NCBI GenBank assembly: GCA_964585095.1
Contig: CAZPCN010000004.1
Span: forward strand, 9,415 to 73,414
Length of the DNA: 64,000 nt
Direction of reading: 5' to 3'
From: an uncultured Syntrophaceae bacterium
Lineage (GTDB): Bacteria > Desulfobacterota > Syntrophia > Syntrophales > UBA2192
Shown here in pieces: positions 12,077 to 50,040 of this stretch. The notes under the pieces were generated by a model, which worked only from the letters and a program-made list of their open reading frames with translations, searched no databases and had not been told where the DNA came from. The stretch's first letter is position 1; each line of letters starts with the position of its first letter. The position numbers and the translations under genes are program-made.

Positions 12077-12125
12077 TCCACTTCCTTTATCCCGGCCCCT
12101 GTACTTCGTCCCCTGAACCCTGGTC

Positions 12126-18158: not shown

Positions 18159-18187
18159 TTTCTTACCCTCTTATCCTCTTACCTTCC
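18159..18187. repeat. Solitary period-8 pyrimidine-rich arm
   Basis: TTCTTACCCT CTTATCCT CTTACCTT CC lies between the resB start and the ftsH stop. It uses the same word family as 14525-14564. Confidence 0.5.
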
Positions 18188-21851: not shown

Positions 21852-21856
21852 TCACC

Positions 21857-23694: not shown

Positions 23695-23740
23695 AACAAG
23701 GGCGGGTGAGCGAATCACCCGCCCTTGTTCTATCTTTCCT
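23695..23740 (+). terminator. Stem-loop after AOR-1 (15-bp stem), weak T-tail
   Basis: AACAAGGGCGGGTGA-gcgaa-TCACCCGCCCTTGTT is homologous to the hairpin after AOR-2. Confidence 0.5.
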
Positions 23741-25703: not shown

Positions 25704-25708
25704 GAACC

Positions 25709-27535
25709 ATGGCAACACCCAAAGGCGGAAATTTCGGAAAGGTACTGGAGATCGACCTGAGCAAGCAGACCTACAAGACGCGTACGGTCTCCGATGAGAT
25801 CCTCCAGCAGTATATCGGCGGGCGCGGCCTCGGGGCCTACTACGCCGTGACGGAATACAAGGCGGGCAAGAACGCCCTCGACGAGGACGCCTTCGTATTC
25901 GTGGGGCCCGGGCCCCTGTCGGGCACCATGGCCGTCTCCCACCGGACCTGCTTCGCCCACAAGAGCCCCTACACGGGCCTCATGACCCACGCCGAGACGG
26001 GCGCCCACCTGGCCAGCGAGATCAAGTTCGCCGGCTGGGACGGCCTCTACATCAAGGGCCGGGCCAAGAAACCCACGTGGTTCACCGTCGTGAACGACAA
26101 GGTCGAGTTCAAGGACGCCTCCAAGATGTGGGGCAAGACCACCGACCAGACCCACGAGATGATGATCAAGGAAATGAAGGACCCCGAAATCCGTACGGCC
26201 GTCATCGGCCCCGCCGGGGAGAACGGCGTCCCCTACTCCTGCATCATCGTCGAGCGCTTCCGCGCCGCCGCCCGCAGCGGCACCGGCATGGTCTTCGGCG
26301 ACAAGAAGCTCAAGGGCTTCGCCGTGCGCGGCACGAAGTACGCCGTGCCCGTCGCGGACAACGCCAAGTTCCTGGCTGCCGCCAAGGTCAACAAGGACAA
26401 CAACGTGCGGCGCGAGGCCTGGGAGGGCATCAAGCGCTGGGGTACGGGCGGCCTGATGGAGCTCAAGCACTACCTCCACGGCTCGCTCATCGTAAAGAAC
26501 TACCAGACCACCTGGTTCCCCGACGTCATCAAGATCGGCGGCGAGGAGGCGGCCCGGACGTTCTGGAAGCGGCACGCGTCCTGCACCAACTGCCCGACGC
26601 ACTGCCTGAAGCTGGGCGTCATCCGCAGCGGCAAGTACGCGGGGATGGTCGCCGAGGGCCCCGAGTACGAGTCCGGCGGCCTGCTGGGATCGAACCTGGG
26701 CATGACGAAGTTCGACGAGATGATCGCCCTCATCGAGGCCTGCGACGCCTACGGCCTCGACAACATCTCCACGGGCGGCGTGCTCGCCTTCACGACGGAA
26801 GCCGTCGAGAAGGGCGCCCTGAAGCCCACGGACCTCGACGGCCTGAAGCCCAAGTGGAACGACGGCGACACCTACATGGAGATGATCCGCAAGATCGCCT
26901 ACCAGGAAGGCAAGGCCGGCAAGCTCATGGCCAAGGGCGTCAGGAAGATGTCCAAGGAAATCGGCAAGGGCTCCGAAGCCTACGCCAACCACACCAAGGG
27001 CAAGGAACTGGCGGCCCACGACCCGCGGGGCGACAAGATTCGCGCCTACAGCTACACGATGGGCACCTGCGGCGGCGACCACCACGAAGGCCAGGGGCCC
27101 CAGGCCCTCGGCATGACGGCGATGGCCGACTCGCTGTGCATCTGCTCCTTCACCAACTTCCTCGTCTACGGCGCAGGCACGGACAAGATCATCACCGACA
27201 TGCTCAACCCGCTGTGCGGCTGGAACTGGAAGCCGGAGGACTACTGGACCACGGCGAAGCGCATCTTCACGCTGGAGCGCGTCTTCAACGTCCGCGAGGG
27301 CATCAGCTCCAAGGACGACCGGCTGCCCATCCGCATGTACAAGGAGAAGCTGCCTGCAGGACCTCGGAAGGACGTCATCTTCACCGATGCCGATCAGAAG
27401 GACATGGAGACCAAGACCTACGGGTTCTTCGGCTGGGACGCCAAGGGCATCCCGACGGAAGCCACCCTCAAGGCCTACGGCCTCGATTACCTGATCGCCG
27501 ACGTCAACGCGGCGAAGAAGAAGTACAACCTCTAA
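25709..27535 (+). CDS. Aldehyde:ferredoxin oxidoreductase family enzyme, copy 2
   Basis: Collinear paralog of 21857-23683 with the same motifs (CTNCPTHC, GLDNISTG, DSLCICSF). ATG follows GGGGAGG. Confidence 0.9.
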   Translation: MATPKGGNFGKVLEIDLSKQTYKTRTVSDEILQQYIGGRGLGAYYAVTEYKAGKNALDEDAFVFVGPGPLSGTMAVSHRTCFAHKSPYTGLMTHAETGAHLASEIKFAGWDGLYIKGRAKKPTWFTVVNDKVEFKDASKMWGKTTDQTHEMMIKEMKDPEIRTAVIGPAGENGVPYSCIIVERFRAAARSGTGMVFGDKKLKGFAVRGTKYAVPVADNAKFLAAAKVNKDNNVRREAWEGIKRWGTGGLMELKHYLHGSLIVKNYQTTWFPDVIKIGGEEAARTFWKRHASCTNCPTHCLKLGVIRSGKYAGMVAEGPEYESGGLLGSNLGMTKFDEMIALIEACDAYGLDNISTGGVLAFTTEAVEKGALKPTDLDGLKPKWNDGDTYMEMIRKIAYQEGKAGKLMAKGVRKMSKEIGKGSEAYANHTKGKELAAHDPRGDKIRAYSYTMGTCGGDHHEGQGPQALGMTAMADSLCICSFTNFLVYGAGTDKIITDMLNPLCGWNWKPEDYWTTAKRIFTLERVFNVREGISSKDDRLPIRMYKEKLPAGPRKDVIFTDADQKDMETKTYGFFGWDAKGIPTEATLKAYGLDYLIADVNAAKKKYNL

Positions 27536-27551
27536 CCGTCTGATTTTCACG

Positions 27552-27600
27552 GCAAGGGCGGGTGACTTGCTCACCCGCCCTTGCTTTTCCTTTTTGCTTT
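27552..27600 (+). terminator. Intrinsic terminator after AOR-2
   Basis: GCAAGGGCGGGTGA-cttgc-TCACCCGCCCTTGC followed by TTTTCCTTTTTGCTTT. Confidence 0.7.
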
Positions 27601-27683: not shown

Positions 27684-28385
27684 ATGGCCTTTTCACGCAG
27701 GGACACAATCCAGCTTCTCGTCAGCGGGGCGGTTTCGACCGCCATCTTCGGCCTCTTTAAGGTAAGCGGGGCCAGGGAAATTCCGCGCCCGCCCGGTGCC
27801 CTCGAAGAAAAATCCTTCCTCGAGTATTGCGCGCGCTGCTATCGGTGCGTCGACGTCTGCCCCACCGACGCGATCCGTCCGGCCGGCCTCGAAGGCGGCA
27901 TCACAAGCTTCGGCACCCCCATTCTGCGCCACAAGGAATGCATCTTCTGCATGGCCTGCATCAAGGAGTGCCCCACGGGGGCCATCGCGAAGATCTCCCG
28001 CGACGAGGTCGACATCGGCAACGCCGTCATCGACCGCTCAACCTGCCTGGCCTGGACGGGCCAGGAGGACTGCACGCGCTGCTTCGACGCCTGCCGCTAC
28101 GACGCCATCAAGCTCGAGAAGGACAAGTACCCCGTCGTCCTCGAGGACCCCTGCACGGGCTGCAACGCCTGCGAGAAACGCTGCCCCACGAAACCCAAGT
28201 CGATCGTCTGCCACTACGACAAGGTGAAGCGAATCCCGCCGCCGGAAAAGCGCGTCGCCCTGCGGCGCGAGGAAGAGGACGGACGGGGCCACGGACGCGA
28301 GGAGGGGTTTACGGACTGGCTGAAGAAGCGGGTGGAGAAGCTCCGGGAGCATTACGGGCTCGTTAAAGAGGAAGAGGAAGAATAA
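27684..28385 (+). CDS. NapG/MauM-like polyferredoxin with N-terminal RR-containing signal or anchor
   Basis: MAFSRRDTIQLLVSGAVSTAIFG, then four CxxCxxC(xxx)CP-type motifs (CARCYRCVDVCP, CIFCMACIKECP, CTRCFDACRYDA, CTGCNACEKRCP). Acidic C-terminal tail. Confidence 0.7.
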   Translation: MAFSRRDTIQLLVSGAVSTAIFGLFKVSGAREIPRPPGALEEKSFLEYCARCYRCVDVCPTDAIRPAGLEGGITSFGTPILRHKECIFCMACIKECPTGAIAKISRDEVDIGNAVIDRSTCLAWTGQEDCTRCFDACRYDAIKLEKDKYPVVLEDPCTGCNACEKRCPTKPKSIVCHYDKVKRIPPPEKRVALRREEEDGRGHGREEGFTDWLKKRVEKLREHYGLVKEEEEE

Positions 28386-28390
28386 AACTC

Positions 28391-28421
28391 GGGTATCGGG
28401 TCTAGGGTCTCGGGTATAGGG
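28391..28421. repeat. GGG-N4 array (5 G-tracts)
   Basis: GGGTATC GGGTCTA GGGTCTC GGGTATA GGG lies between the NapG-like and first HdrA-like genes. Confidence 0.65.
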
Positions 28422-28435
28422 TTCAAAGATTCACA

Positions 28436-29647
28436 ATGAAGATTACAGACAAGAAAACCAAAACCGTGCTTGTGGTAGGAGGCGGGGTGGCCGGGATATC
28501 GGCGGCCCTCGACCTGGCCGGCAACGGCCACCGGGTACACCTCGTCGAGAAGGGCCACGACCTGGGCGGCCAGGTGGCGAAGCTCGACAAGTTCTACCCG
28601 ACGGACCACTGCGCCTTCTGCCCCCTCTGGACGGAAATCCGCCGATGCAAGGAAGACGAGGCGATTGCCGTCCACCCGCTCTCCCGCGTGGAGACCCTCG
28701 AGCAGCAGACCGGGGGGTACCGGGCCGTCGTCGTCCAGTCGGCGCCCGTCGTCGACCCGTCGCTCTGCATCAACTGCGGCCGCTGTGAAACGGCATGCCC
28801 GAAAGACCTCGCGAAGCCGATCTGGGAACACGCCTACCCGCCCGTCCACGTCATCGACGGGACTCGCTGCGGGGACTGCCGCGCCTGTGTGGCGGCATGC
28901 CCCGTGAAGGCCATCGCCTTCGACCGGGAAGAGCAGCGCATCGCGCTGGACGCGGACGAGGTCATCTGGGCGGCGGGCTTCGACGAAGTGAGCCTCGCCC
29001 CGATGAAGGAATACGGGTGGGGGACGCACCCGGACATCCTCACGTCGCTCGAGTTCGAGGCCTGGAAGGCCGAGGCGGGCGACAACCGGGGCAAAATCAT
29101 CCGGCGCTCCGACCGATCCGCGCCCCGGAACATCCTCTTCGTGCAGTGCGCGGGCGCACGGGACCTGAGGCTCCTGCCCCACTGCTCCGCCGTCTGCTGC
29201 ATGCATGCGCTCAAGCAGGCCCAGTGGGTCAAGCGAAGAAACCCGGACATCGACTGCATCATCCTCTACACGGACCTGCGCACCGTGGGGAGGGACTACT
29301 ACGAGTACGCCCTGCGCGATTTCAACGGCAACGTCGTCCGCCTCGTCCGGGGACGTTCCTCGCTCATCACCCCCCTGCCCGGCGGCAACGGGATTGCCGT
29401 GAAGTACGAGGACACGATCACAGGAAAGCGCGAGATCCGGCAGTTCGACATGGTCGTCCTCAACGGGAACCTGCAGTCCTCCCTCGCGTCGAAGCCGTCG
29501 CCGAAGGCGCGGCCGGAGCTGAGCGGCGAGGGGTTCGTGACAGCGGCGTCCGTCTCCTGCGGGTTCGTCATGGAGCCGGCGGATGTAACGGAATCGGCGA
29601 TCCAGGCGGCATCGGCGGCACTCAGAACGATTACGGACAAGAACTGA
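28436..29647 (+). CDS. HdrA/QmoA-like FAD- and FeS-containing flavoprotein (short form)
   Basis: VLVVGGGVAGISAALDLA...LVEKGHDLGGQVAKLDKFYPTDHCAFCPLW. Inserted ferredoxin motif CINCGRCETACP. FVQCAGARD...CSAVCCMHALK, as in HdrA/Qmo proteins. Confidence 0.8.
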   Translation: MKITDKKTKTVLVVGGGVAGISAALDLAGNGHRVHLVEKGHDLGGQVAKLDKFYPTDHCAFCPLWTEIRRCKEDEAIAVHPLSRVETLEQQTGGYRAVVVQSAPVVDPSLCINCGRCETACPKDLAKPIWEHAYPPVHVIDGTRCGDCRACVAACPVKAIAFDREEQRIALDADEVIWAAGFDEVSLAPMKEYGWGTHPDILTSLEFEAWKAEAGDNRGKIIRRSDRSAPRNILFVQCAGARDLRLLPHCSAVCCMHALKQAQWVKRRNPDIDCIILYTDLRTVGRDYYEYALRDFNGNVVRLVRGRSSLITPLPGGNGIAVKYEDTITGKREIRQFDMVVLNGNLQSSLASKPSPKARPELSGEGFVTAASVSCGFVMEPADVTESAIQAASAALRTITDKN

Positions 29648-29648
29648 A

Positions 29649-31355
29649 ATGGCAAAGATCGGCGTCCTTCTCTGCAACTGTTTCGGCGAGATCGGCAACA
29701 CCGTCAACCTGGAGTCCATCCGGGAACGGCTCGCGTCCGACCCCTCGGTGGACTTCGTGACCATCCGTGAGTCCCTCTGCCAGCCGGGCGATGCCTCTGC
29801 GGTGCATGCCATGCTCCGCGAGCGCGGGATCGGAAAGGTGCTCCTCGGCGCCTGTTCACCCTACGGCAGGATGGAAGCCGTGCGTCTCGGTCTCGCGAAG
29901 GAGGGCGTCGACGTCAGGACCGTGCGCGCCGCGGACCTGCGCGAAGGTTGCGCCTGGATCCACGGGAAAGACCCCGGGGGCGCGACGCGCAAGGCGGCAA
30001 ACCAGCTGGACATGGAACTTGCCCTCCTGCAGAACACGCAGGATTCGAAGGACATCGACATCCGTCTCCGGCGCGAGGCGCTGGTGATCGGAGCGGGGCC
30101 CGCGGGCCTCTCGGCCGCCTGCGGCCTGGCCCGCATGGGAATCAGGGTGCACCTCGTCGATCGTGGGACGGCCCCCGGCGGCCTTCTCAACGTGGTGACG
30201 AAGGTGTACCCGACGGAGCTGTCGGGACCGGAGAAACTCAAGCCCCTTGTCGAGATGGCGGGCAACAACCCCCTCATCCGTTTTTATGGGAAGACCAAAG
30301 TTGCCTCGGTGAAGGGGTATGCCGGCGATTTCAAGGTCTCCCTCGCTGGACCGGAAGGAAACACGAGCCTGCGCGTGGGGGCCGTCGTGCTCGCCACGGG
30401 GGCGCGCCTCCTGTTCCCCCAGGGGCTCTACGGTTACGGGAAAACGAAGAACGTGATCACCCAGATGGAGATGGAGAGGCAGTTCGCGACGGGGAAGGTC
30501 GCCTGCAGGACGGCCGTCTTCATCCAGTGCGTCGGCGCCCGCTGCGCCGAGCGGCCCTACTGCTCGACCATCTGCTGCCCGATGTCCCTGAAGAATGCCA
30601 TGCGGATTCTCGACGAGGTGCCCGGTTCGAAGGCCGTGATCCTGCACCGCGACATCATGACACCGGGAAGCGTCCTGGAGGCTTTTTACCGCAAGGCCCT
30701 GCACAGGGGCGTCCAGTTCATCCGCTTCGATGCGGACAAGCCCCCGCAGGTCAGGGGCGACGGCCAGGTGAGCGGCGTCGAGGTCTTCGACGTCCTGAGC
30801 GGGATGACCCGTTCGATCGAGACAGACCTGCTCGTCCTGAGCACTCCGCTCGTGGCCGACCCGGATAGCGCGGCGCTTGCCCGCATGCTCGAGATCCCCG
30901 TGGACAAGCACGGCTTCATCGCCGAGGTCTACCCGGTTCACCCCGTGGAGACGCGAAACGACGGCGTCTTCATCTGCGGGACGGCCCGCTGGCCCGTCTC
31001 GTCGGACCAGGCCATCGCGCAGGGCGAGGCGGCAGCCGTGAAGGCGGCCTCCTTCCTCGGGCGGGAAACGGTCTCTGCTCTCACCATGAGCCGGGTCCCG
31101 GGCTCCAAGCTCGGCCATGCGGCGGCCAACGCCGATGCCTGCACGGGCTGCGGCAACTGTGTTGTCGTCTGCCCTTACGGGGCCTGCAAGCTGCAGCGAA
31201 CGGGGCAGCGCTCCGTGAGCCGGGTGATCAAGGTCCGCTGCAAGGCCTGCGGAAGCTGCGCGTCGGTCTGCCCCAACGGGGCGATGCAGATCCCCGAGCA
31301 GAACTACCGGGTCACGGGAGCCATGATCCGCCGTGCTTTCCGGGAGGTGCGCTGA
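29649..31355 (+). CDS. HdrA/QmoB-like flavoprotein with N-terminal Cys-rich domain and C-terminal 2x[4Fe-4S]
   Basis: KIGVLLCNCFGEIG N-domain. ALVIGAGPAGLSAA FAD motif. FIQCVGARC...CSTICCPMSLKNA. C-terminal CTGCGNCVVVCP and CKACGSCASVCP. It starts 1 nt after the previous stop. Confidence 0.8.
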   Translation: MAKIGVLLCNCFGEIGNTVNLESIRERLASDPSVDFVTIRESLCQPGDASAVHAMLRERGIGKVLLGACSPYGRMEAVRLGLAKEGVDVRTVRAADLREGCAWIHGKDPGGATRKAANQLDMELALLQNTQDSKDIDIRLRREALVIGAGPAGLSAACGLARMGIRVHLVDRGTAPGGLLNVVTKVYPTELSGPEKLKPLVEMAGNNPLIRFYGKTKVASVKGYAGDFKVSLAGPEGNTSLRVGAVVLATGARLLFPQGLYGYGKTKNVITQMEMERQFATGKVACRTAVFIQCVGARCAERPYCSTICCPMSLKNAMRILDEVPGSKAVILHRDIMTPGSVLEAFYRKALHRGVQFIRFDADKPPQVRGDGQVSGVEVFDVLSGMTRSIETDLLVLSTPLVADPDSAALARMLEIPVDKHGFIAEVYPVHPVETRNDGVFICGTARWPVSSDQAIAQGEAAAVKAASFLGRETVSALTMSRVPGSKLGHAAANADACTGCGNCVVVCPYGACKLQRTGQRSVSRVIKVRCKACGSCASVCPNGAMQIPEQNYRVTGAMIRRAFREVR

Positions 31356-31356
31356 C

Positions 31357-31800
31357 ATGACTTCCGCAGCAGCCAGCACGAACATTCTCGTCTTCGCCTG
31401 CCGCTGGTGCGGCCTCATCGGGGCCGACGGCGCCGGGCGCAGGCGCACGGAACTGCCCGCCTCCTTCCGGGTCATCCCCGTGGAGTGCGCGGGGTACGTG
31501 GAGCCCGACGCGGTGATCCGCGCCTTCGCGAGCGGCGCGGCGGGCGTGGCCGTCCTGGGCTGCCACGTGGGAGGGTGCCGGTTCAACGACGCCAACCACC
31601 CTGCCCTCAAGCGCCTGGAGCTGCTCAAGACGCTCCTCGACGCGACGGGCATCGGCGGCAACCGGCTGCTGCTCGGGTTCGGCACGGCGCACGAGTACCA
31701 CCAGTGGGCCGACACGATCCGGGACTTCCACAAACACGTGGAGGGACTGCCCTCGATGAAGTCGTGGCTGCCCGCGGCGGCCGTGACCGGTGAACGGTGA
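31357..31800 (+). CDS. MvhD-like (methyl-viologen-reducing hydrogenase delta subunit family) protein
   Basis: ILVFACRWCGLIGADGAG...IPVECAGYVEPD...VAVLGCHVGGCRF is the MvhD/FlpD pattern. ATG lies 1 nt after the upstream stop. The ORF-track start at 31333 overlaps the upstream gene and seems less likely. Confidence 0.8.
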   Translation: MTSAAASTNILVFACRWCGLIGADGAGRRRTELPASFRVIPVECAGYVEPDAVIRAFASGAAGVAVLGCHVGGCRFNDANHPALKRLELLKTLLDATGIGGNRLLLGFGTAHEYHQWADTIRDFHKHVEGLPSMKSWLPAAAVTGER

Positions 31801-31889
31801 AACAATAACGAAGTTTTTTGGCGACACGGCAATCGGCCAACATCCTTCGCGCGAATAGACGGTTTTCGACCGCTCTAGTTCTTTCAAAA

Positions 31890-32008
31890 GGCTGTTCAAA
31901 AAGGCCAGATGCAAGGCGCCCGACGTCCTGAGGAGTGAGGCGTACCGTGTTGTACGTTGAACGACGAAGGACAAGGGCAACGATGCAGATGGTCATTTTT
32001 CAACAGCC
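31890..32008 (+). other. Long imperfect hairpin (about 119 nt) inside a 480-nt non-coding spacer
   Basis: GGCTGTT/AACAGCC, AAAAA/TTTTT, TGCA/TGCA, GCCC/GGGC, GTCCT/AGGAC and CGTAC/GTACG helices are separated by repeated tandem G-A/A-G mismatches. The apical loop is CGTGTT (31946-31951). Confidence 0.45.
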
Positions 32009-32279
32009 TGCGAAGCTCGCTTCACTGCAGTGCAACGACTCGCCCTTCGGGCTCAAACAGTTTGCGCTGCGGCCGCTCCGCTTCGCTAAGAGCGGTTAAC
32101 GACCGGGGGCGCATCCCGCAAGGAGGCGCGTTCATGACATGAACTTCCTTGCCGGGGAGCAACCACGGGTTGCGACAAAACGCGCCTAACTTCGCACTCA
32201 GGATTCGGCCCGATTACCTGGTTTTTCGGTTCGAGTTTAAGCAGCCCGCCATTGGGCGGCGACGTAAAAGAAGATACTA

Positions 32280-33125
32280 ATGCTGGAACAGGTAAAACAG
32301 AAAGCAAAAGCAATCCTCGAGAAGAAGGAAGCCGACGGCGTCCTGGGGCTGCGCAAGGGCCCCTTCGACGTGATCCACCCGCACGTCTTCACGACGCCGG
32401 CGGAACTGGACGCCCTTGTCCTCGAGCCCAAGTGGCTCTTCGCCAAGATGGCACGGTCGATCCTCCGCGCGAAACCCGCGGACTACAGGCTTGCCGTTGC
32501 CGTGCGCGGCTGCGACGAGCGAGCCGTCGTGGAGCTTGTCAAGCGAAGCCAGATCGACCGCGAGCGGCTTCTCACCATCGGCTATGCCTGCGGAACGGAG
32601 CAGGCCAGGACCTGCCTGTGCAGCCGCCCCTACCCCGAGAAGCTGGATGCGGGAGAAGCCGTGGAAGGCGTGGACCCCTTCGCGGACGAGCGGGTGAAGG
32701 CCTTTCTGGAGGGCGATCCGGCCCTCCGGATGGAGAAATGGGCGGACCAGCTCCGGCGCTGCATCAAGTGCTACGGCTGCCGCAACTCCTGCCCCATCTG
32801 CGTGTGCGTGCCCTGCAAGCTCGAGGACGACGTATGGGTCGAGCGAGGCGTCATCCCGGCCGAGATGGTTTCCTTCCACCTCATCCGGGCGTTCCACCTC
32901 TCCGACACGTGCGTGGCCTGCGGGGCCTGCCAGGAGGCCTGCCCGGTGGGCATCCCGCTCATGACGCTCCAGCTTTCGATGCGGGCGGCGCTGAAGAAGG
33001 ACTACAACTACGAGGCGGGGCTCGACGCGGACCGCAAGTCCCCCGTTCTCTTCGACTTCATCCAGGAACCCCGTCCCGGGCAGAACGTGCCCGACTGGGT
33101 CGACAGCACGGGAAAGAAGCCATGA
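32280..33125 (+). CDS. Fe-S protein (AsrA/HydB-like Cys pattern), putative electron-transfer partner of FdhA
   Basis: CIKCYGCRNSCPICVCVPC and CVACGACQEACP motifs. Its stop overlaps the fdhA start (ATGA). Family assignment is tentative. Confidence 0.6.
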   Translation: MLEQVKQKAKAILEKKEADGVLGLRKGPFDVIHPHVFTTPAELDALVLEPKWLFAKMARSILRAKPADYRLAVAVRGCDERAVVELVKRSQIDRERLLTIGYACGTEQARTCLCSRPYPEKLDAGEAVEGVDPFADERVKAFLEGDPALRMEKWADQLRRCIKCYGCRNSCPICVCVPCKLEDDVWVERGVIPAEMVSFHLIRAFHLSDTCVACGACQEACPVGIPLMTLQLSMRAALKKDYNYEAGLDADRKSPVLFDFIQEPRPGQNVPDWVDSTGKKP

Positions 33126-35170
33126 ACCCCGAATTCATCCGAACCATATGCCCCTACTGCGGCACGGGATGCGGCATCGTCCTGAAGATCGAGGACGGTC
33201 GCGCGGCCGCTTCGTACCCCGACCGGGAAAACCCGGTGAGCCGGGGCTCGCTCTGCGTGAAGGGCTGGTTTTCCCACGAGTTCGTCCATCACCCCGAGCG
33301 GCTGACGGCCCCGCTTCTGCGCAAGGGCGACGCGTTCGTGGAAATCTCCTGGGAGGAGGCCATTGCGCTTGCGGCCCGCAAGCTCCGGGAAACGGCCGAA
33401 AAATACGGCCCCGACAGCGTGGGCGGGCTCTCGTCGGCCAAGTGCACCAACGAGGAGAACTACCTCTTTCAGAAGCTCATCCGGGCGGCCTTCCGGACCA
33501 ACAACGTGGACCACTGCGCCAGGCTCTGCCACGCGGCCACCACGGTGGGCATGCTCCAGACCCTCGGCAGCGGCGCCATGACGAACTCCATCTCGGACCT
33601 GGCCGGTGCGGACTGCATCCTTTTCATCGGCTCCAACGCCGCCGAGAGCCACCCCGTGCTCATGGGCGAGGTCTACAAGGCCCTCGACCGGGGGGCGCAG
33701 ATGTTCGTCATCGACCCGAGGGAGACGCCGGTGGCTCGCAACGCCCGCAAGCTCCTGCGGCTCAACCCGGGCACGGACATCCCTCTGCTGGCCGGCATGA
33801 TGCGCCACATCGTCGACAGCGGGCTCCACGCAAAAGATTTCGTCGAGAAGCGGACGGAGAATGTCGAGGCCCTCAAGACGTTTCTTGCGGCCTGGCCCCT
33901 GGACAAGGTCGCAAGCGAGACCGGCATCGACGAGGCGACGATCCGCGAGGTGGCCGAGACGTACGCGAAGGCGGACAATGCCGCCATCGTCTACTGCATG
34001 GGCATCACGCAGCATGCCTGCGGGGTGGCCAACGTGATCGCCATCTGCGATCTGGCGATGCTCTGCGGCCAGGTCGGGAAGCCCTTCTCGGGGATCTACC
34101 CGCTGCGCGGCCAGAACAACGTGCAGGGCGCCTGCGACATGGGGGCCCTGCCCAACCTCTACCCCGGCTACCAGGGCGTGGCCGACCCGGCCATCCGCGA
34201 GAAGTTCCAGAAGGCCTGGAAGGCGGAGCTTTCCGACAAGCCCGGCAAGACCGTGACGGAGCTCATCAACGCCTCCGGCAAGGACATCCGCGCCCTCTAC
34301 ATCATGGCCGAGAACCCCTGCATCAGCGACCCCGACGTGAACCACGTCATGGAGGCCCTGCAGCGGCTCGACTTCCTGATCGTGCAGGATATCTTCCTGA
34401 CCGAGACGGCGAAGTTCGCCCACCTCGTCCTGCCCGGCGCCTGCTTTGCCGAGAAGACGGGAACCTACACGAACACGGAGCGGCGGTTCCAGCTCCTGCA
34501 CAAGGCCGTCGACCCGCCCGGGAAGGCCATGGGCGACTTCGAGATCCTCTGCATGATGGGCAAGGCCCTGGGGCTGCCCTTCGACTACGCTTCGCCCGCC
34601 GAGGTGATGGCGGAGTACGCGGGACTCGTCCCGGCCTACGCGGGGATCTCGTTCGACCGATTGGAACGGGCGGGCCTGCAGTGGCCCTGCCCCGACGAGA
34701 AGCACCCGGGGACGCGGTTCCTGCACGGCACGACGTTCACCCGGGGGCTCGGCCGGTTCGTCATCCCCGACTACACGCCGCCCATGGAAAAGCCCGACGC
34801 GGAGTACCCCTACTACCTCAACACGGGGCGCGTCTTCGCCCACTACCACACGGGGACGATGACGAGGCGCTCGGCGTTTCTGAACCGCGAGATCGAGGAG
34901 CCCTACGTGGAGATCCACCCCGACGACGCCGCCGCCCTCGGCGTGGGCCCCGGCGACTGGATCCGGGTCACCTCGCGCCGCGGCAGTATCGTCACGACGG
35001 CCCGCATTTCCGATCGCGTGGTAAAGGGCAGCATCTTCGCCCCCTTCCACTTCACCGAGGCGAGGGCCAACATGCTCACGAACCCGGTGCTCGACCCGGC
35101 CTGCAAGACGCCCGAGTACAAGGTGTGCGCCGTGAAAATGGAAAAGGATCATGAAGCCCAGGCACGATAA
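33122..35170 (+). CDS. fdhA: Formate dehydrogenase catalytic subunit-like molybdo/tungstopterin oxidoreductase (Cys form)
   Basis: N-terminal CPYCGTGCGI...SRGSLCVKG FeS motif. VDHCARLCHAATT active-site block has Cys where Sec-type enzymes have U. The C-terminal beta-barrel block is (VEIHPDDAAALGV...GDWIRVTSRRG). The 32252 extension in the ORF track was rejected. Confidence 0.85.
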   Translation: MNPEFIRTICPYCGTGCGIVLKIEDGRAAASYPDRENPVSRGSLCVKGWFSHEFVHHPERLTAPLLRKGDAFVEISWEEAIALAARKLRETAEKYGPDSVGGLSSAKCTNEENYLFQKLIRAAFRTNNVDHCARLCHAATTVGMLQTLGSGAMTNSISDLAGADCILFIGSNAAESHPVLMGEVYKALDRGAQMFVIDPRETPVARNARKLLRLNPGTDIPLLAGMMRHIVDSGLHAKDFVEKRTENVEALKTFLAAWPLDKVASETGIDEATIREVAETYAKADNAAIVYCMGITQHACGVANVIAICDLAMLCGQVGKPFSGIYPLRGQNNVQGACDMGALPNLYPGYQGVADPAIREKFQKAWKAELSDKPGKTVTELINASGKDIRALYIMAENPCISDPDVNHVMEALQRLDFLIVQDIFLTETAKFAHLVLPGACFAEKTGTYTNTERRFQLLHKAVDPPGKAMGDFEILCMMGKALGLPFDYASPAEVMAEYAGLVPAYAGISFDRLERAGLQWPCPDEKHPGTRFLHGTTFTRGLGRFVIPDYTPPMEKPDAEYPYYLNTGRVFAHYHTGTMTRRSAFLNREIEEPYVEIHPDDAAALGVGPGDWIRVTSRRGSIVTTARISDRVVKGSIFAPFHFTEARANMLTNPVLDPACKTPEYKVCAVKMEKDHEAQAR

Positions 35171-35612
35171 AATCGAGGAAGCCAGGAAACTCTCCGGGGC
35201 CTCCGGCTGCGTCGAGTGCGGCCGCTGCGTCGCCGCCTGCCCCATGGCGGAGATGTACGCCGACTTCGGCATCGAGATGTCCCCCCGGGGCATCATCAAG
35301 AAGACACTCGTCGGCGACGACGTCGTCGCGGACCGCAACATCTGGTACTGCACGGAGTGCAACAGCGGCACCGACGTCTGCCCCCAGGGGGTGAGCTGCC
35401 GGGACCTGATCCGCAAGCTCCGCGAAGCGGCCATCGAGGAGAACGTGGTCGAGAACGCCAAGCGTTGCGAGGCCTGCGGCCGGTTCTTCCTGGCCGTTCC
35501 CGTGGAGGACTTCGTGTTCGGCAGGCTGAAGGCGGAGCCGGCAAACGTCCTCAAGGCCCTCGAGACGTGCCCGACCTGCCGGCGGGAGATATATCTTTTA
35601 CGGAATGCATGA
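35151..35612 (+). CDS. HdrC-like 2x[4Fe-4S] protein with C-terminal CxxC...CxxC ribbon
   Basis: CVECGRCVAACP and CTECNSGTDVCP motifs, then CEACGRFF...CPTC. It overlaps the fdhA end by 20 nt. Confidence 0.65.
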   Translation: MKPRHDKIEEARKLSGASGCVECGRCVAACPMAEMYADFGIEMSPRGIIKKTLVGDDVVADRNIWYCTECNSGTDVCPQGVSCRDLIRKLREAAIEENVVENAKRCEACGRFFLAVPVEDFVFGRLKAEPANVLKALETCPTCRREIYLLRNA

Positions 35613-35726
35613 AAAATCCCCCTCGTTCCCCCTTTTTCAAAGGGGGATGAGAATATGAAGTCCTTCCTTCTCATAAGGGAACCCCGTATGACTCCCCCCT
35701 TTCGTAAAGGGGGGCTGGGGGGATTT
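35613..35726. repeat. Two GC-rich palindromic REP-like elements (CCCCTTTnnAAAGGGG type)
   Basis: AAAAATCCCCCTCGTTCCCCCTTTTTCAAAGGGGGATGAG and ACTCCCCCCTTTCGTAAAGGGGGGCTGGGGGGATTT. Same family as 5169-5200. Confidence 0.55.
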
Positions 35727-35770
35727 AGACGAAACAGACGAAATAGACCAGATAGACCGGACAGACCGTC
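35727..35770. repeat. Period-9 tandem repeat (AGACnnnnn x5)
   Basis: AGACGAAAC AGACGAAAT AGACCAGAT AGACCGGAC AGACCGTC. Confidence 0.65.
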
Positions 35771-35773
35771 ATA

Positions 35774-37111
35774 ATGGAAGCGTCAAAGAAACCCGATACC
35801 CGAGACCCGATGCCCGAGACCCGGCCGCAGAGCGGCCTGAAGCTCGAGGATCTCAGGCCCCGACAGCCGGAGAAGAAGAAGTTCTCCGACTGGTTCATGC
35901 CGAGGCGGAACAACACGATCCTCTTCGACCCCGCGAAGTGCACCGGTTGCGGCACCTGCGAAATGATCTGCTCGACCCGCAACGTCGCGAAGGTGGCCCC
36001 GGCGTCGGCCAGCGTCAAGGTTCTTTCCGACGAGAAGCTCGGCAAGAACTTCGCCGTCCTCTGCCAGCACTGCCGCAGGCCCCTGTGCCTCGAGGCCTGC
36101 CCGACGCGGGCGATCGAAAAGGGCGAAGACGGCATCGTGCGGATCAACGACCTGTTCTGCGTCGACTGCGGCCTCTGCACCATGGCCTGCCCGGAAGCGG
36201 CGCCCCTCAAGGACCCGGGAACAGGCGAGATCCACAAGTGCGACCTCTGCGAGGGAGACCCGCTGTGCGTGAAGCACTGCCCCGAGGGCGCCCTGGCGAC
36301 CACCCGCGGAAACGCCTTCCGATGGATCAAGGCCGCCCGCTGGAGCGTCCAGGCCCTGTCGTTTCTCTTCCTCGTGCTTCTCGTCGTGGGGACCTTCTGC
36401 TATTTCCGGGCGGGGACGGTGGAACTGGCCTGCCCCACGGGGACGCTGCAGAACATCGCCTCGTCGGGGACGCTCATCCTCGTGGGCGCCTCGTCGGCCC
36501 TGGCCCTGCTCATCCTGACGGTCCTCTTCGGCAGGGTCTTCTGCGGCTGGGTCTGCCCCTTCGGCTTTGTCCTGGACCTGGTGGACAAGATCACCCCGAA
36601 GAAGCTCGGCTGGCCGAATTTCCTGAAAAGCCGGATGGCCAAGTACGGCATCCTCGGCGGCGCCGTAGGCAGCAGCGCCGTGCTGGGTTACCAGGCCTTC
36701 TGCACCGTCTGCCCCATCGGCACCCTGTGCCGCTCCTACGGGGTCCAGTCGGTCATGCAGAGCGCCGAGCTGGCCATCGTGCCGGCGCTGGCCGCGACGG
36801 AAATCGCCGAGCGCCGGTCCTGGTGCCGCTACCTCTGCCCCGTCGGCGCCACGCTGGGCATCGCCAGCCTGCTGAGGCTCCTCAAGATCGTCATCGGGGC
36901 CCGTAAATGCAAGAAATTCTCCTGCATCCAGTGCGCCGAGGTCTGCCCCGTGGGAATCATCAACGCCGACGAGCTTCGCGAGGGCATCTCCCCGAAAATC
37001 CCGATGACGGAGTGCATCATGTGCCTGCGCTGCGTGGACCGCTGCCCCTACAGCGCGGCGAAGGTCCGCTTCCGCTGGCAGAAATCGACCCCCGGGGAGG
37101 CGAACACATGA
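35774..37111 (+). CDS. Membrane polyferredoxin: N-terminal DmsB-like 4Fe-4S domain fused to a NapH/NosR-like CxxxCP membrane domain and a C-terminal 2x[4Fe-4S]
   Basis: CTGCGTCEMIC, CQHCRRPLCLEACP, CVDCGLCTMACP and CDLCEGDPLCVKHCP. Then TM helices with FCGWVCPFG and CRYLCPVG. Then CIQCAEVCP and CIMCLRCVDRCP. The start is uncertain: codons 6-17 are encoded by a CCC-N4 repeat (35792-35822), so the later ATG giving MPRRNNTILFDP (about 35897) may be the real start. Confidence 0.75.
   Translation: MEASKKPDTRDPMPETRPQSGLKLEDLRPRQPEKKKFSDWFMPRRNNTILFDPAKCTGCGTCEMICSTRNVAKVAPASASVKVLSDEKLGKNFAVLCQHCRRPLCLEACPTRAIEKGEDGIVRINDLFCVDCGLCTMACPEAAPLKDPGTGEIHKCDLCEGDPLCVKHCPEGALATTRGNAFRWIKAARWSVQALSFLFLVLLVVGTFCYFRAGTVELACPTGTLQNIASSGTLILVGASSALALLILTVLFGRVFCGWVCPFGFVLDLVDKITPKKLGWPNFLKSRMAKYGILGGAVGSSAVLGYQAFCTVCPIGTLCRSYGVQSVMQSAELAIVPALAATEIAERRSWCRYLCPVGATLGIASLLRLLKIVIGARKCKKFSCIQCAEVCPVGIINADELREGISPKIPMTECIMCLRCVDRCPYSAAKVRFRWQKSTPGEANT
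35792..35822. repeat. CCC-N4 array (5 C-tracts; G-quadruplex motif on the minus strand)
   Basis: CCCGATA CCCGAGA CCCGATG CCCGAGA CCC. Confidence 0.65.
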
Positions 37112-38433
37112 GCCTCTACCAGCCCTTCTTCAACGGAAAAATCGGCGTTGTCGACCTGACGACTCGTTCGGTTTACACCCTGGATCTTCCCTGGGAGGTC
37201 TGCGGGGAGCACATCGGGGGTGCAACCGTCAACGCGAGACTGCTGTCCGAGTACGAGAGCGACACGCTGGTCCTCGGCACCGGCCCGCTCACGGGCAGTT
37301 TCGCCCCGGCCTCGTCGCTCCTGGTCGGGACATTCCGCTCGCCCCGCTGGGACCACCTCTGCCACGTGCCCTTTATGCTCCGAAGCGGCCCGGAGATGAA
37401 ATTCTCGGGCTTCGACTTCCTGGTCATCCGCGGCTCCGCAAAGGAGCCCTGCGCAGTATTTGCAGGGCGCGGCCAGCTCCGCGTTCTTCCCGTCCCCGAC
37501 ACGGCGGACAAGCCCGTCCCGGAAGTCCTGCAGGCGCTCAAGCGGGCCGCACCCGGCTACCGGGGTTCCATCGTGACGGGCCCCGCGGCGGACCGCGGCT
37601 CGAACCATGCGTCGGCCTCCGCGGGCAGCCACGGGAGCTTCGACCGCGTCGGGTTTGCCGCCCGCATGGCCGAGAAAAATCTGAAGGCCGTTCTCTTCAA
37701 CGGCATCGGGGGCCTTCCCTTCCATGAGGACCACCCCGCGCTGTCCAAGGCAACGGAAAAGATGCTGCGGGACTCGGGTGCCATGAAGGCCGCTGGCTTC
37801 GTCTCCGTTTTGAAGGGACTTGCCGACGGCGCGGAAGCCGCGGGTGCGTTGCGGGGCAAACTCGGACGAAACCGTGCCTGCTACCACTGCCCCTGCCCCT
37901 GCATGACCTCCACGGCATTCGGAAAAACAGGACCGGAGAAAGAGGGGCTCCTGATGCTGGATCACGCCGGTTGGGCCGCTCTGTCCCGTAAATCTGAAAG
38001 CGCCCTGCCCCTGCTCATGCGGTGCCTGGAACTGGGTCTCGATCCCCTCGCGGCCGGACTGGTCCTCCGCGAAGACCGCCCGATGAAGGAAACCATCAGC
38101 GCTTTGGAGGCGCTTGTCGCGGGCAGCGCCTCGATCGACGAAGAGGATTACCCGGCGGCACCCGGGATCGACACGCGGCATTACCGCCTTCTGGGCGGCA
38201 TCACACCCCTGTCTTCCGGGAAAGCCTGGACGGAGCGGGTCGCAGCGGCTCTCATCCTGGGCGTCTGCCCCGTGTTCATGCAGATCGCCGGCAGCCTGGA
38301 TCGCACCGATCTTCTGCGCTTTCTCTCTGCCGACGCGGAAGAAGTCAAGTCTCTGGCGACAAAACTCAACGGTCAGGTCGAAATGCTCCTGGAGGGGAAA
38401 ATACCGGAATCGGGTCTCGGGGATCGGGTATAG
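37108..38433 (+). CDS. Short, divergent AOR-family protein (about 441 aa)
   Basis: AFOR N-domain-like start (KIGVVDLTTRSVYTLDL...GTGPLTGSFAPAS...FDFLVIRG...IVTGPAADRGS...KNLKAVLFNG). CYHCPCPC resembles the AOR CxxCxxxC cluster motif. LELGLDPLAAG and ILGVCPVF resemble the two pterin-phosphate motifs. It is about 165 aa shorter than the two full AORs upstream. ATGA overlap with the NapH-like gene. Confidence 0.65.
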   Translation: MSLYQPFFNGKIGVVDLTTRSVYTLDLPWEVCGEHIGGATVNARLLSEYESDTLVLGTGPLTGSFAPASSLLVGTFRSPRWDHLCHVPFMLRSGPEMKFSGFDFLVIRGSAKEPCAVFAGRGQLRVLPVPDTADKPVPEVLQALKRAAPGYRGSIVTGPAADRGSNHASASAGSHGSFDRVGFAARMAEKNLKAVLFNGIGGLPFHEDHPALSKATEKMLRDSGAMKAAGFVSVLKGLADGAEAAGALRGKLGRNRACYHCPCPCMTSTAFGKTGPEKEGLLMLDHAGWAALSRKSESALPLLMRCLELGLDPLAAGLVLREDRPMKETISALEALVAGSASIDEEDYPAAPGIDTRHYRLLGGITPLSSGKAWTERVAAALILGVCPVFMQIAGSLDRTDLLRFLSADAEEVKSLATKLNGQVEMLLEGKIPESGLGDRV

Positions 38434-38577: not shown

Positions 38578-39012
38578 TCAGTCCGCAAAGAACGCCGGGA
38601 GCAGCTCTGGGGTCTTCCCCTGCATCTTCTGGCGCTTCTCTTCGATGGTCTTGCATTCGATGCAAAGGGTGGTCACGGGACGCGCCATGAGCCTCTTCAC
38701 GCCGATCGGTTCGCCGCACTCTTCGCAAACCCCGTAGGTCCCGTCATCGATGCGCTCGATGGCCTCCTTCATCTTCACGATCAGCTTCCGCTCGCGCTCC
38801 CTCATGCGGATCTCGAGGTTGAGGTCGGACTCCTGGGAGGCCCTGTCGTTCATGTCGGGGAGTTTCTCCTCGTTGCCCGCCATGTCGACGACGGTCTTCC
38901 CCACTTCCGCCATCAACTCGTTGATTTTGGACTGCAGCATCTTCCTGATCAGTTTCAGGTCTTTGGCTGTTGCTGCCTGCACCTTGGCCAAGTTGCTTAC
39001 CCCCCTATCCAT
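38578..39012 (-). CDS. dksA: DksA/TraR-family C4 zinc-finger RNA polymerase-binding protein
   Basis: Coiled-coil region plus CEECGEPIGVKRLMARPVTTLCIECK. Confidence 0.85.
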   Translation of the reverse strand: MDRGVSNLAKVQAATAKDLKLIRKMLQSKINELMAEVGKTVVDMAGNEEKLPDMNDRASQESDLNLEIRMRERERKLIVKMKEAIERIDDGTYGVCEECGEPIGVKRLMARPVTTLCIECKTIEEKRQKMQGKTPELLPAFFAD

Positions 39013-39467: not shown

Positions 39468-39983
39468 TCAGCAAAGTTTCCCAAATCGCTCCGCCGCATA
39501 GAGCGGGTCGATGTCGGCCCTCATGCCCGCGATCTTGGCCATGTGCGTTTTCTCCTCCCGAATCATGGCCTCGAGGATCTTCTTCTGCCCCCTGTCCTTC
39601 GAACGCTTCGCAAGCTCCGTGTAGAGCAGGATCGCGTTCTTCTCGGCCTGCATGGCGATGCGGCAGGCGTCTTCCACGGTCTTGACCAGATCGAGCCGCT
39701 CCGCGGCCTTGTCGCCCCCGGGCAGAAGGCCCTCCCGGATGACGGCGTCGAGGTAGTCGTCGATCTCCACGTCGTGGAAACACTCCTCGACCCCCTTGCG
39801 AAGGGCCGCGGCCTGGACGTCCATCAGCTCGCGCAGGTGCTTTGCCTCTTCTTTGGCCAGCTTCATGAACAGGCCCGCAAGTTCGGTTCCCCTGAACTTC
39901 TCCGCCGCCTTGGTGTAGAAACTCACCCCGTGCTCCTCCTGGCGCACGGCGTAGTCGATCACGCTGATCTCCGTTTTTGCCAT
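39468..39983 (-). CDS. Ferritin-like diiron (rubrerythrin-fold) protein, paralog A
   Basis: Two E...ExxH half-sites (EEAKH, EEKTH). 171 aa. Collinear with 40022-40537. Confidence 0.7.
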   Translation of the reverse strand: MAKTEISVIDYAVRQEEHGVSFYTKAAEKFRGTELAGLFMKLAKEEAKHLRELMDVQAAALRKGVEECFHDVEIDDYLDAVIREGLLPGGDKAAERLDLVKTVEDACRIAMQAEKNAILLYTELAKRSKDRGQKKILEAMIREEKTHMAKIAGMRADIDPLYAAERFGKLC

Positions 39984-40021
39984 CGTACGGTCTCCTCTGC
40001 CTGTCGTTCCCCTTTCCCGGC

Positions 40022-46487: not shown

Positions 46488-46505
46488 TTGAATAAAGAGG
46501 CAGCC

Positions 46506-47078: not shown

Positions 47079-47124
47079 GACGCGCACCCTTCCCGCGAAC
47101 CGAGCTCTTTTCAAGGTGAACCCG

Positions 47125-50039: not shown

Positions 50040-50040
50040 C

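Follow-up and report, generated by a model that had tools for sequence, protein, structure and literature searches.

Genes and predicted products of the cluster

The window analysed here is the whole of a 64,000-nucleotide (nt) stretch of DNA from an uncultured Syntrophaceae bacterium (assembly GCA_964585095.1, contig CAZPCN010000004.1, positions 9,415 to 73,414 of the forward strand). It contains a conserved set of eleven genes in which a predicted exported aldehyde oxidoreductase (AOR), a membrane link resembling NapGH, a flavin module of the Qmo/HdrA type and methanogen-type formate dehydrogenase subunits occur together, and it is this gene set, and the redox complex that its products may form, that we describe. 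The GC content of the 64-kb window is ~65%, and long shadow open reading frames (ORFs) are therefore common. True genes were picked over these GC-rich shadow ORFs by a third-position GC content (GC3) of 0.75-0.94 together with domain matches. A first-pass annotation of the DNA had described nine same-strand genes at 27684-38433, and GC3 and domain searches bore out all nine, on the + strand. Its placement of the cluster start at 27684 was mistaken, in that a conserved gene for an FeS protein with a signal for twin-arginine translocation (Tat), as well as a full-length AOR gene, had been missed upstream (24951-27535, with a duplicate at 21105-23683). The eleven genes, with refined coordinates, are listed below.

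24951-25703, + strand: FeS_a2, a Tat-signal polyferredoxin of the WorS/AorA type and partner of AOR2, assigned from PDB matches
25700-27535, + strand: AOR2, a full-length catalytic subunit of the tungsten/molybdenum (W/Mo) AOR family, with AFOR_N and AFOR_C domains and PDB matches
27684-28385, + strand: NapG-like protein
28436-29647, + strand: QmoA-like protein
29649-31355, + strand: QmoB-like protein
31357-31800, + strand: MvhD, with an ATG start; a start at the GTG at 31333 is unlikely
32280-33125, + strand: FdhB', a truncated FdhB, earlier called "FeS"
33122-35170, + strand: FdhA, in the frame of ORF 32252-35170 and not of ORF 33148-35154
35151-35612, + strand: HdrC-like protein
35774-37111, + strand: NapH fusion
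37108-38433, + strand: short AOR

The 1-nt gaps, the two ATGA overlaps and the 20-nt overlap reported for this cluster were all recovered on the refined coordinates. The QmoA/QmoB and QmoB/MvhD junctions are 1 nt each, ATGA overlaps join FdhB' to FdhA and the NapH fusion to the short AOR, and the FdhA and HdrC-like genes overlap by 20 nt. Wider gaps lie between NapG and QmoA (50 nt), between HdrC and NapH (161 nt), and between MvhD and FdhB' (a spacer of 479 nt, 31801-32279). The GC3 values and the ~130 independent syntenic loci described below rule out an assembly artefact and chance ORFs. Profile searches on each ORF confirmed every domain call, with Pfam and NCBIfam agreeing on a NapG-like protein, two HdrA/Qmo-like proteins, MvhD, a Cys-type FdhA (which passes TIGR01591), an HdrC-like protein, a NapH-like protein and an AOR-family protein.

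The two genes at the 5' end form one of two FeS_a-AOR pairs in the window, each of which encodes a polyferredoxin of ~250 residues followed by a 611-residue AOR that has both AFOR_N and AFOR_C. It is not the AORs but the polyferredoxins that carry a signal peptide, in the form of a Tat signal (a twin-arginine motif, a hydrophobic stretch and AEA-Q). Tat-linked, membrane-associated tungsten oxidoreductases (WORs) were defined as Class V in a 2026 paper, which places them in Desulfobacterota and assigns them no function (PMC13328260). A Tat signal on the small subunit WorS is the operational definition of that class, and the present system falls under it; the motif [ST]RRxF[LI] is present in 55/55 distinct FeS_a relatives, and the cofactor residues of AOR2 are intact. 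The best PDB matches of FeS_a2 are the WOR5 small subunit (6x6u_B, 3.8e-27) and AorA (8c0z_C, 4.4e-22). AOR2 matches Pyrococcus furiosus AOR best (1aor, 3.5e-93) and keeps the equivalents of its Arg76, Cys288/291/295/494, Glu313, Asp338, His448 and Asp489. AOR2 scored 316 bits against 1aor, ~270 bits against 9mqx and 9g7j, 243 against WOR5, 163 against BamB and, by blastp, 116 against YdhV, so that, as judged by these scores, AOR2 resembles the classical aldehyde oxidoreductases more than it does WOR5, BamB or YdhV. Since the partner of these AORs is an FeS subunit with a Tat signal, a periplasmic position is predicted for the aldehyde site, and aldehyde chemistry would belong to these upstream AORs.

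The NapG-like protein, which has four [4Fe-4S] clusters, starts with a Tat motif (FSRRD) and continues with PRPPGA, as is typical of NapG. None of the complete NapG sequences recovered from the loci lacks the SRR motif. The protein is predicted to lie on the periplasmic face. It scores 83 and 69 bits against the NCBIfam NapG models (cut-offs 269 and 179; E-value 1.9e-23). The NapH fusion begins with a polyferredoxin domain of the AorA/WorS type (residues 49-180; PDB 8c0z_C, 1.4e-27), continues with a haem-free membrane domain of the NapH type with ~4 transmembrane helices and two CX3CP motifs (residues ~185-375), and ends in two [4Fe-4S] motifs. NapH models match residues 213-438 at 7e-31 and 1.6e-30 (108 and 106 bits; cut-offs 213 and 234). 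Hydropathy and the positive-inside rule predict that both termini are inside and that both CX3CP motifs and all ferredoxin domains are cytoplasmic. The predicted outer loops contain C220-P and C310xxC313P...C319, all of which, like the two CX3CP motifs, are invariant in 20 diverse homologues, and these outer-loop cysteines could be cluster ligands or form disulfides on the outer face. C209 is also invariant and falls in a predicted periplasmic loop (residues 209-220, 310-319). The cluster had been described as membrane-anchored. While the NapGH-like membrane part of that description stands, a purely anchoring role is probably too narrow, since the conserved Tat signal of NapG suggests that the module probably connects both sides of the membrane.

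Among the predicted cytoplasmic proteins, the QmoA-like protein has an FAD domain with an inserted ferredoxin domain that carries two [4Fe-4S] clusters (Pfam FAD and Fer4; NCBIfam HdrA2, 9e-78). The QmoB-like protein starts with a Cys domain, continues with an FAD domain and ends in a ferredoxin domain (HdrA2, 1.1e-94), and its best solved relatives are methanogen HdrA proteins (PDB 8rvu_a, 1.4e-69). MvhD, a [2Fe-2S] adaptor (Pfam FlpD, 2.7e-34), matches positions 646-773 of the HdrA2 model and corresponds to the C-terminal MvhD-like domain of canonical QmoB/HdrA2, here encoded by a separate gene. The product of the following gene had been called an FeS protein; its identity as a generic ferredoxin was given up in favour of FdhB on the strength of PDB alignments (9t1s_M, 1.6e-33; 7bkb_E, 2.3e-32). 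This 281-residue protein aligns only to FdhB residues 30-132 and 261-376, and it retains the N-terminal portion as well as the ferredoxin domain, which has two [4Fe-4S] clusters. Pfam gave no FrhB_FdhB match for it, and we infer that the missing central part is the FAD/F420-binding core. By alignment, FdhB' is a truncated methanogen-type FdhB. FdhA scores 833 bits against TIGR01591 (cut-off 666), contains the motifs HCARLCH and RGQNNVQG, and has no signal peptide; its best PDB match is the alpha subunit of an archaeal F420-dependent formate dehydrogenase (9t1s_L, 1.8e-225), and its best solved relatives are archaeal FdhA proteins of the F420 type and associated with Hdr. These features identify it as a predicted cytoplasmic formate dehydrogenase alpha subunit of the Cys type with a Mo/W-bis-pyranopterin guanine dinucleotide cofactor. 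The HdrC-like protein (153 residues, two [4Fe-4S] clusters) matches TIGR03290 at 6.4e-15 and the qmoC model at 2.9e-9, both below the cut-offs, and the latter match covers only the first ~100 positions of the model (cut-off 300 bits). We found no HdrB, as no CCG-domain match was obtained among the cluster proteins with Pfam or NCBIfam.

The short AOR that closes the cluster matches Pfam AFOR_N only (1.2e-30), with no AFOR_C match. Its AlphaFold2 model has a predicted local distance difference test score (pLDDT) of 90, and Foldseek aligned this model to W-AORs with query TM-scores of 0.71-0.78 and target TM-scores of 0.52-0.58; ~170 residues are missing relative to those enzymes. The [4Fe-4S] ligands, CxxCxxxC plus a distal cysteine (C258, C261, C265 and C387), are invariant in 64 sequences. 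Both pterin-binding aspartates (DxxGL(C/D) motifs) are replaced by hydrophobic residues, the EYE motif with the catalytic glutamate has become a nearly invariant D-H pair, there is no equivalent of Arg76, and the His448/Lys450 segment is deleted. The short AOR is also the fastest-evolving gene of the set, with 35-45% identity where its neighbours have 55-78%. A profile search of 1.84 billion representatives yielded, with E-values up to 1e-30, ~90 clusters (50% identity) whose members are nearly all of short-AOR size, and full-length AORs matched more weakly and in the N-terminal part only. We rejected the short AOR as a catalytic aldehyde enzyme because its pterin-binding and catalytic residues are lost, and the acid/aldehyde chemistry once suggested for it is very unlikely in a protein that keeps only the [4Fe-4S] cysteines. 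Its sequence suggests that it is probably an FeS-carrying scaffold or adaptor subunit.

Conservation, variants and flanking features

The conserved set consists of Tat-FeS, AOR, NapG, QmoA-like, QmoB-like, MvhD, FdhB', FdhA, HdrC-like, AorA-NapH fusion and short AOR genes, which occur in one order and on one strand in ~130 independent loci, wherever the sequence reaches. Of these loci, 49 came from a scan of one genome per species, all of them metagenome-assembled genomes (MAGs), and 80 more from a metagenome scan with NapG. The former scan used two short peptide patterns and missed a cultured carrier described below, so its blanks in cultured Syntrophus, Smithella and other cultured taxa do not amount to absence. 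Protein identities across the syntenic loci lie between 35 and 97%. Such an arrangement goes far beyond what chance would produce, and it gives substance to the operon-like packing noted in the first pass. Spacing is conserved as well. The NapH and short AOR genes overlap by 4 nt in 58/61 loci, which upholds the claim that an AOR-family gene is translationally coupled to the membrane subunit through an ATGA overlap. Spacing is -20 between FdhA and HdrC in 42/76 loci, -11 or -4 between FdhB' and FdhA in 72/80, and -4 to +5 between FeS_a and AOR in 56/56. An AOR2 homologue lies directly 5' of NapG in every locus that reaches that far. The flanking genes vary between lineages, indicating that the short AOR is the last gene of the unit.

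A search with the short AOR recovered a family of ~430-450 residues whose named hosts are uncultured Syntrophaceae, Syntrophales or deltaproteobacterial genomes. The cluster is widespread in uncultured Syntrophales of digesters, sediments and peat. A search with the NapH fusion showed a wider occurrence of this protein within Desulfobacterota, and it was through this search that we found the same eleven genes, in the same order, in the complete genome of the cultured Desulforapulum (formerly Desulfobacterium) autotrophicum HRM2, at ~1.636-1.650 Mb of CP001087.1. The HRM2 genome paper of 2009 had drawn hdrA loci with 'formate dehydrogenase subunit B', FdhA, 'Fe/S cluster protein' and 'Aor5', and it proposed no function for that gene set (PMC2702500). 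The description of the cluster as undescribed thus holds for its biochemistry and fails for the locus itself, which that paper had already drawn (PMC2702500).

Two variants differ from this arrangement. The Desulfovibrio/gut-type variant lacks FdhA, has MvhD fused to FdhB' and a short AOR of 360 residues, and continues after the short AOR with genes for an unknown protein, a ThiF-like protein, TatA and MoeA. The Syntrophobacter-type variant lacks the short AOR and has a selenocysteine FdhA after the NapH fusion. Tat motifs are present in the HRM2 locus and in both variants, and the core that is invariant across variants comprises Tat-FeS, AOR, NapG, QmoA, QmoB, MvhD, FdhB', HdrC and the NapH fusion. 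In a Syntrophobacter sp. MAG (locus L137), the selenocysteine FdhA gene at 11318-13351 encodes 677 residues with an in-frame TGA at HCARL*H; it has no Pfam annotation on record and occupies the position of the short AOR in other lineages. A conserved unknown protein of ~317-366 residues and a ThiF/MoeB-like gene follow the cluster both in L137 (13351-15380) and in the Desulfovibrio-type locus L136 (12429-14540). In L136 the TatA and MoeA genes are next in line, which is consistent with dedicated cofactor maturation and export.

Further features lie upstream of the eleven genes and within the set.

21105-21851, + strand: FeS_a1, a WorS/AorA-type polyferredoxin with the Tat signal SRRDFLRG...AEA-Q (Pfam Fer4_11), paralogue of FeS_a2
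21848-23683, + strand: AOR1, a full-length AOR-family protein (WorL; AFOR_N 1.4e-58, AFOR_C 9.6e-92)
23695-23729, + strand: 15-base-pair (bp) GC-rich hairpin with a T-rich tract directly after AOR1, resembling a terminator or attenuator, from a scan for terminator-like elements
24309-24800, + strand: P460-like cytochrome with a Sec-type signal and the haem motif CIKCH (Pfam PF16694, 8.5e-17)
27551-27585, + strand: GC-rich hairpin with a T-rich tail between AOR2 and NapG, from the same scan
31801-32279, no strand assigned: structured spacer with a palindromic element at ~32012-32100, outside the conserved system

AOR1 lacks a signal peptide, and its start overlaps the FeS_a1 stop. AOR1 and AOR2 are 73% identical, and the duplicated pair occurs only in the closest clade. 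The P460-like gene lies between the two pairs, and a homologue is found 5' of FeS_a-AOR in two of three clades; its product is possibly a periplasmic accessory protein. Divergent from the AOR cluster, a 105-residue protein with only a LysR/ModE-type HTH_1 domain is encoded at 20208-20525 on the - strand, and a similar 120-residue HTH_1 gene adjoins FeS-AOR in the Desulfovibrio-type locus (L136, 1269-1631). This protein may be a molybdate- or tungstate-responsive regulator.

The hairpins after the full-length AOR genes in the window have stems of 13-15 bp. We compared the first 70 nt after the AOR stop in related loci and observed a stem of at least 9 bp in 65/74 distinct relatives (median stem 13 bp; median z = -5). 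The hairpin is kept across most lineages while the stem sequence differs between clades, and the AOR/NapG gap is never shorter than 76 nt. This hairpin is probably a terminator or attenuator between two always-adjacent transcription units, and it would probably raise AOR/FeS_a expression relative to that of the downstream genes. Of the structured spacer reported between MvhD and FdhB', the structure is borne out, with a length of 479 nt in place of the 480 given and a better fold than shuffled sequence (z = -4.7). As a feature of the system it is not conserved. The length of this junction was 1-435 nt in the first related-locus set and up to 459 nt overall, most commonly 2 nt, and pieces of the window spacer are common to close relatives only, in either orientation. 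The spacer is a lineage-specific insertion, and it contains no credible ORF. Close relatives have its palindromic element of ~85 nt (32012-32100), in either orientation, at the corresponding MvhD/FdhB' junction; the element is without an Rfam match and is possibly a small repeat or mobile element. A riboswitch or known RNA in the spacer was rejected, as there was no Rfam match at the gathering threshold in the whole window and the only sub-threshold hit, with E = 0.2, is at the level of chance.

Upstream of the AOR genes lie the housekeeping genes of System II cytochrome c biogenesis (ResB-like, CcsA-like) and FtsH (15878-18150 and 18187-20001, - strand). Downstream are two tandem rubrerythrin genes and a DksA-like gene (39468-40537 and 38578-39012, - strand), followed by a set of POR-gamma, glutamate-synthase-like and thiamine pyrophosphate-enzyme genes (46488-50922, + strand). 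The close relative L001 also has the rubrerythrin, DksA-like, POR-gamma and glutamate-synthase-like genes; the more distant L003 has other downstream neighbours, indicating that the rubrerythrin, DksA-like, POR-gamma and glutamate-synthase-like genes are not part of the unit.

A candidate membrane-spanning complex and its alternatives

Syntrophic and sulfate-reducing Desulfobacterota move electrons between menaquinone and formate or H2 by means that are only partly understood, the menaquinone pool lying at ~-75 mV and formate/H2 at ~-300 to -430 mV. The gene set combines four known modules, namely a Tat-exported W/Mo AOR, a NapGH-like link, a Qmo/HdrA flavin module and a methanogen-type FdhAB, in an arrangement without biochemical description. 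As the likeliest single reading, we propose that the eleven gene products form one membrane-spanning redox complex that links these modules, and we give this proposal about even odds. The direction and stoichiometry of such a complex are hypotheses and much less certain than the complex itself.

In methanogens, electrons pass from FdhAB through MvhD to the bifurcating FAD of HdrA, and HdrC carries the high-potential branch to HdrB (the families of PDB entries 7BKB and 8RVU). In the QmoABC of sulfate reducers, an HdrC-like domain links two HdrA-like proteins to a quinone subunit in the membrane. The ferredoxin NapG, periplasmic after export by Tat, works with membrane-bound NapH, the two together being a quinol dehydrogenase, and the large subunits of [NiFe]-hydrogenases are exported by riding on an FeS subunit with a Tat signal. 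Several observations argue for a single complex in the present case. Most junctions keep their translational coupling, the NapH fusion has at its N-terminus the canonical polyferredoxin on which AORs dock, and the short AOR always comes coupled to this fusion. In addition, the fusion of MvhD to FdhB' in the Desulfovibrio-type variant indicates direct contact between these two proteins.

In the proposed complex, FeS_a and AOR would be co-exported through the Tat pathway in the manner of [NiFe]-hydrogenase large and small subunits, and the pair would carry out the periplasmic oxidation of an aldehyde or of a related substrate of low potential. Electrons from AOR/FeS_a would pass to NapG, docked on the membrane domain of NapH. 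On the inside, the fusion (through its FeS domains), the FeS-only short AOR and HdrC would join the membrane/quinone site to the FAD of the QmoAB-like proteins, and MvhD and FdhB' would join this flavin to FdhA. The flavin would thereby connect three couples, with the AOR chain and/or ferredoxin as the low-potential branch, menaquinone at NapH as the high-potential one, and CO2/formate as the third. In a syntroph, confurcation would be favoured, with low-potential and menaquinol electrons together reducing CO2 to formate for interspecies transfer. Protons would be released outside and consumed inside, and aldehyde oxidation outside combined with CO2 reduction inside would separate charge. The first-pass annotation had favoured a complex that couples formate/CO2, and possibly an acid/aldehyde couple, to the quinone pool and a low-potential carrier. 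A membrane-bound (con)furcating device between formate/CO2 and quinone is still the most economical reading, with the acid/aldehyde site now reassigned to the upstream AORs. A more specific version, in which the haem-free NapH, its cysteines invariant on either face, acts as a transmembrane FeS or quinone relay that passes very low-potential electrons of the exported AOR to the Qmo/HdrA flavin, where they are confurcated with those of menaquinol to reduce CO2 to formate while the pseudo-AOR has a structural role, is in our view rather unlikely in its entirety. If true, it would constitute an unknown route by which syntrophs and sulfate reducers lift quinol electrons to formate without spending proton-motive force.

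If the eleven proteins do form one complex, it would provide the first physiological context for Tat-linked tungsten oxidoreductases and, in bacteria, a membrane-bound equivalent of the bifurcating Fdh-Hdr complexes known from methanogens. It would also be a candidate device for reverse electron transport in the methanogenic digesters and peat that host these Syntrophales. Since the cultured HRM2 carries the same eleven genes, the hypothesis is directly testable.

A number of points weigh against the single complex. Its physical association, direction and quinone use are inferred from the genes. NapH-type proteins are known as quinol dehydrogenases, and we know of no member in which electron transfer from NapG through NapH to cytoplasmic clusters has been demonstrated. 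The scores of NapG, NapH and HdrC are far below the curated family cut-offs, the AlphaFold2 model of the NapH fusion (pLDDT 44, predicted TM-score 0.25, from a 20-sequence alignment) is unusable for cluster geometry, and the role given to the short AOR is a guess. FdhA is absent from the Desulfovibrio-type and repositioned in the Syntrophobacter-type variant, indicating that CO2/formate is not a universal partner. Furthermore, with a hairpin and a gap of at least 76 nt behind it, the AOR pair may be made from a separate transcript. Finally, the only Class V WOR tested so far, CsWOR41, is reported not to oxidise aldehydes, and the substrate here is possibly not an aldehyde (PMC13328260).

The conserved hairpin and gap after AOR would suit an arrangement of two enzymes side by side, which we consider unlikely. 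One would be a periplasmic AOR:menaquinone oxidoreductase in which FeS_a, AOR, NapG, the NapH fusion and perhaps the short AOR feed the quinone pool only, and the other a soluble cytoplasmic Fdh-MvhD-HdrA-like bifurcating enzyme that uses ferredoxin and, through HdrC, a high-potential acceptor. Such an arrangement agrees with the established function of NapGH as a quinone-linked module, with the soluble Hdr-Fdh assemblies of methanogens, and with the differing presence and position of FdhA among the variants. However, NapG opens and the NapH fusion closes a block with the Qmo, Mvh, Fdh and HdrC genes between them in every locus, which would be odd for independent enzymes and argues against two of them. 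The junctions from NapG to the short AOR are tight, the cluster encodes no HdrB or other high-potential catalytic partner for HdrC, and Qmo sets a precedent for HdrC-like FeS domains paired with a membrane quinone subunit.

The result with CsWOR41 also raises the question of substrate, for the exported AOR-family enzyme might act on a periplasmic compound other than an aldehyde, as WOR5 does on sulfonates and BamB in ring reduction, and serve respiration or detoxification. FeS_a2 has its best structural match in the small subunit of WOR5, and according to the Class V paper no member of the class has a known function (PMC13328260). Nevertheless, AOR2 is nearest to broad-specificity AORs (1aor, 9mqx and 9g7j) over WOR5, BamB and YdhV, and it retains the catalytic equivalents of Glu313 and His448. 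We regard a non-aldehyde substrate as unlikely. Operation of the complex in reverse, with formate or reduced ferredoxin oxidised inside and the flavin bifurcating electrons to menaquinone (the exergonic branch) and, at very low potential via NapH and NapG, to a periplasmic AOR that turns carboxylic acids into aldehydes, is very unlikely: the architecture is symmetric as to direction, W-AORs are reversible and bifurcation could supply the electrons below ~-550 mV that acid reduction needs, and formate-consuming sulfate reducers such as HRM2 also have the cluster, but periplasmic aldehydes have no obvious physiological use, Syntrophales normally export rather than import reducing equivalents, and no alcohol dehydrogenase or other aldehyde-consuming gene is conserved beside the cluster in the loci compared.

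Comparison with known systems

Full-text literature searches gave no biochemical or physiological description of a complex with this subunit set, in line with the statement in the first-pass annotation that no characterised complex has it. Four leads, namely a paper on benzene and ORM2, NapH homologues of ANME archaea, Hdr/Aor of D. multivorans and Hdr/Qmo of S. fumaroxidans, were unrelated. By sequence, the system departs from QmoABC, from the methanogen Fdh-Hdr complexes and from NapGH in defining features of each.

QmoABC is a quinone-linked complex of the HdrA type (PMC3333476). The present system shares with it two paralogous HdrA-like flavoproteins of QmoA/QmoB size and domain order, an MvhD-type domain after QmoB, a two-[4Fe-4S] HdrC-like protein tied to a membrane subunit of the quinone type, a cytoplasmic terminal enzyme, and the lack of HdrB. 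In contrast to QmoABC, MvhD is here split off as a separate gene after a 1-nt gap. The membrane subunit is a haem-free NapH-type protein with an AorA-like polyferredoxin, whereas QmoC has a di-haem cytochrome b domain; neither Pfam and NCBIfam searches nor the predicted topology revealed a QmoC-type cytochrome b domain in it. Together with the HdrC-like protein, this subunit occupies the place of QmoC. The partner enzyme is FdhAB' instead of AprAB, as neither the window nor any related locus contains apr genes (aprBA), and NapG and the Tat-exported AOR add a periplasmic arm.

The FdhAB-MvhD-HdrABC complexes of methanogens (7BKB, 8RVU, 9T1S) provide the best structure matches for FdhA, FdhB, MvhD and HdrA, and an HdrC-like protein is likewise present here. 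Unlike in those complexes, FdhB lacks the central FAD/F420 part, two QmoA/QmoB-like proteins stand for a split HdrA, a membrane module of the NapH type takes the place of HdrB with its heterodisulfide site, the host is bacterial, and there is a link to AOR. With NapGH/NosGH the system shares a Tat-signal, four-cluster ferredoxin of the NapG type with PRPPGA and a membrane protein of the NapH type, which has ~4 transmembrane helices, both CX3CP motifs on the cytoplasmic side and a C-terminal domain for two [4Fe-4S] clusters. It differs in the extra N-terminal AorA-like four-cluster domain on NapH, in the coupling to a pseudo-AOR, in having a W/Mo AOR as periplasmic partner, and in scoring below the curated cut-offs. 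Neither nap nor nos genes were found in any locus, including that of HRM2.

The exported pair itself is closest in plan to the Class V WORs, exemplified by E. coli YdhYVWXUT and C. somerae WOR41, which likewise consist of WorL, a Tat-signal WorS and membrane-associated extra subunits (PMC13328260). With respect to clade 41 of that class (the YdhV type), pairwise comparison gives AOR2 27% identity to E. coli YdhV and puts it nearer to the AOR of P. furiosus. Orthology of AOR2 with YdhV is not supported by this identity and by a score of 190 bits against the YdhV model (cut-off 868). The membrane partner here is NapGH-like and not a cytochrome of the YdhU type, and none of the Class V compositions described in the accessible part of the paper includes a cytoplasmic Qmo/Hdr/Fdh module (PMC13328260). 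Class II (BamBCDEFGHI) and Class IV WORs (a WorLS 'nanowire' with a WorABC plug) also combine an AOR and a polyferredoxin with HdrA/MvhD-like or other flavin bifurcation modules. Several LS units may feed one plug, and the present window has two LS gene pairs and a hairpin that possibly raises LS expression. Those enzymes, however, are soluble and cytoplasmic, use NAD(P) and ferredoxin and have NuoEFG-like modules, whereas the system described here has an exported LS unit, a membrane link, and a Qmo-like module together with a formate dehydrogenase.

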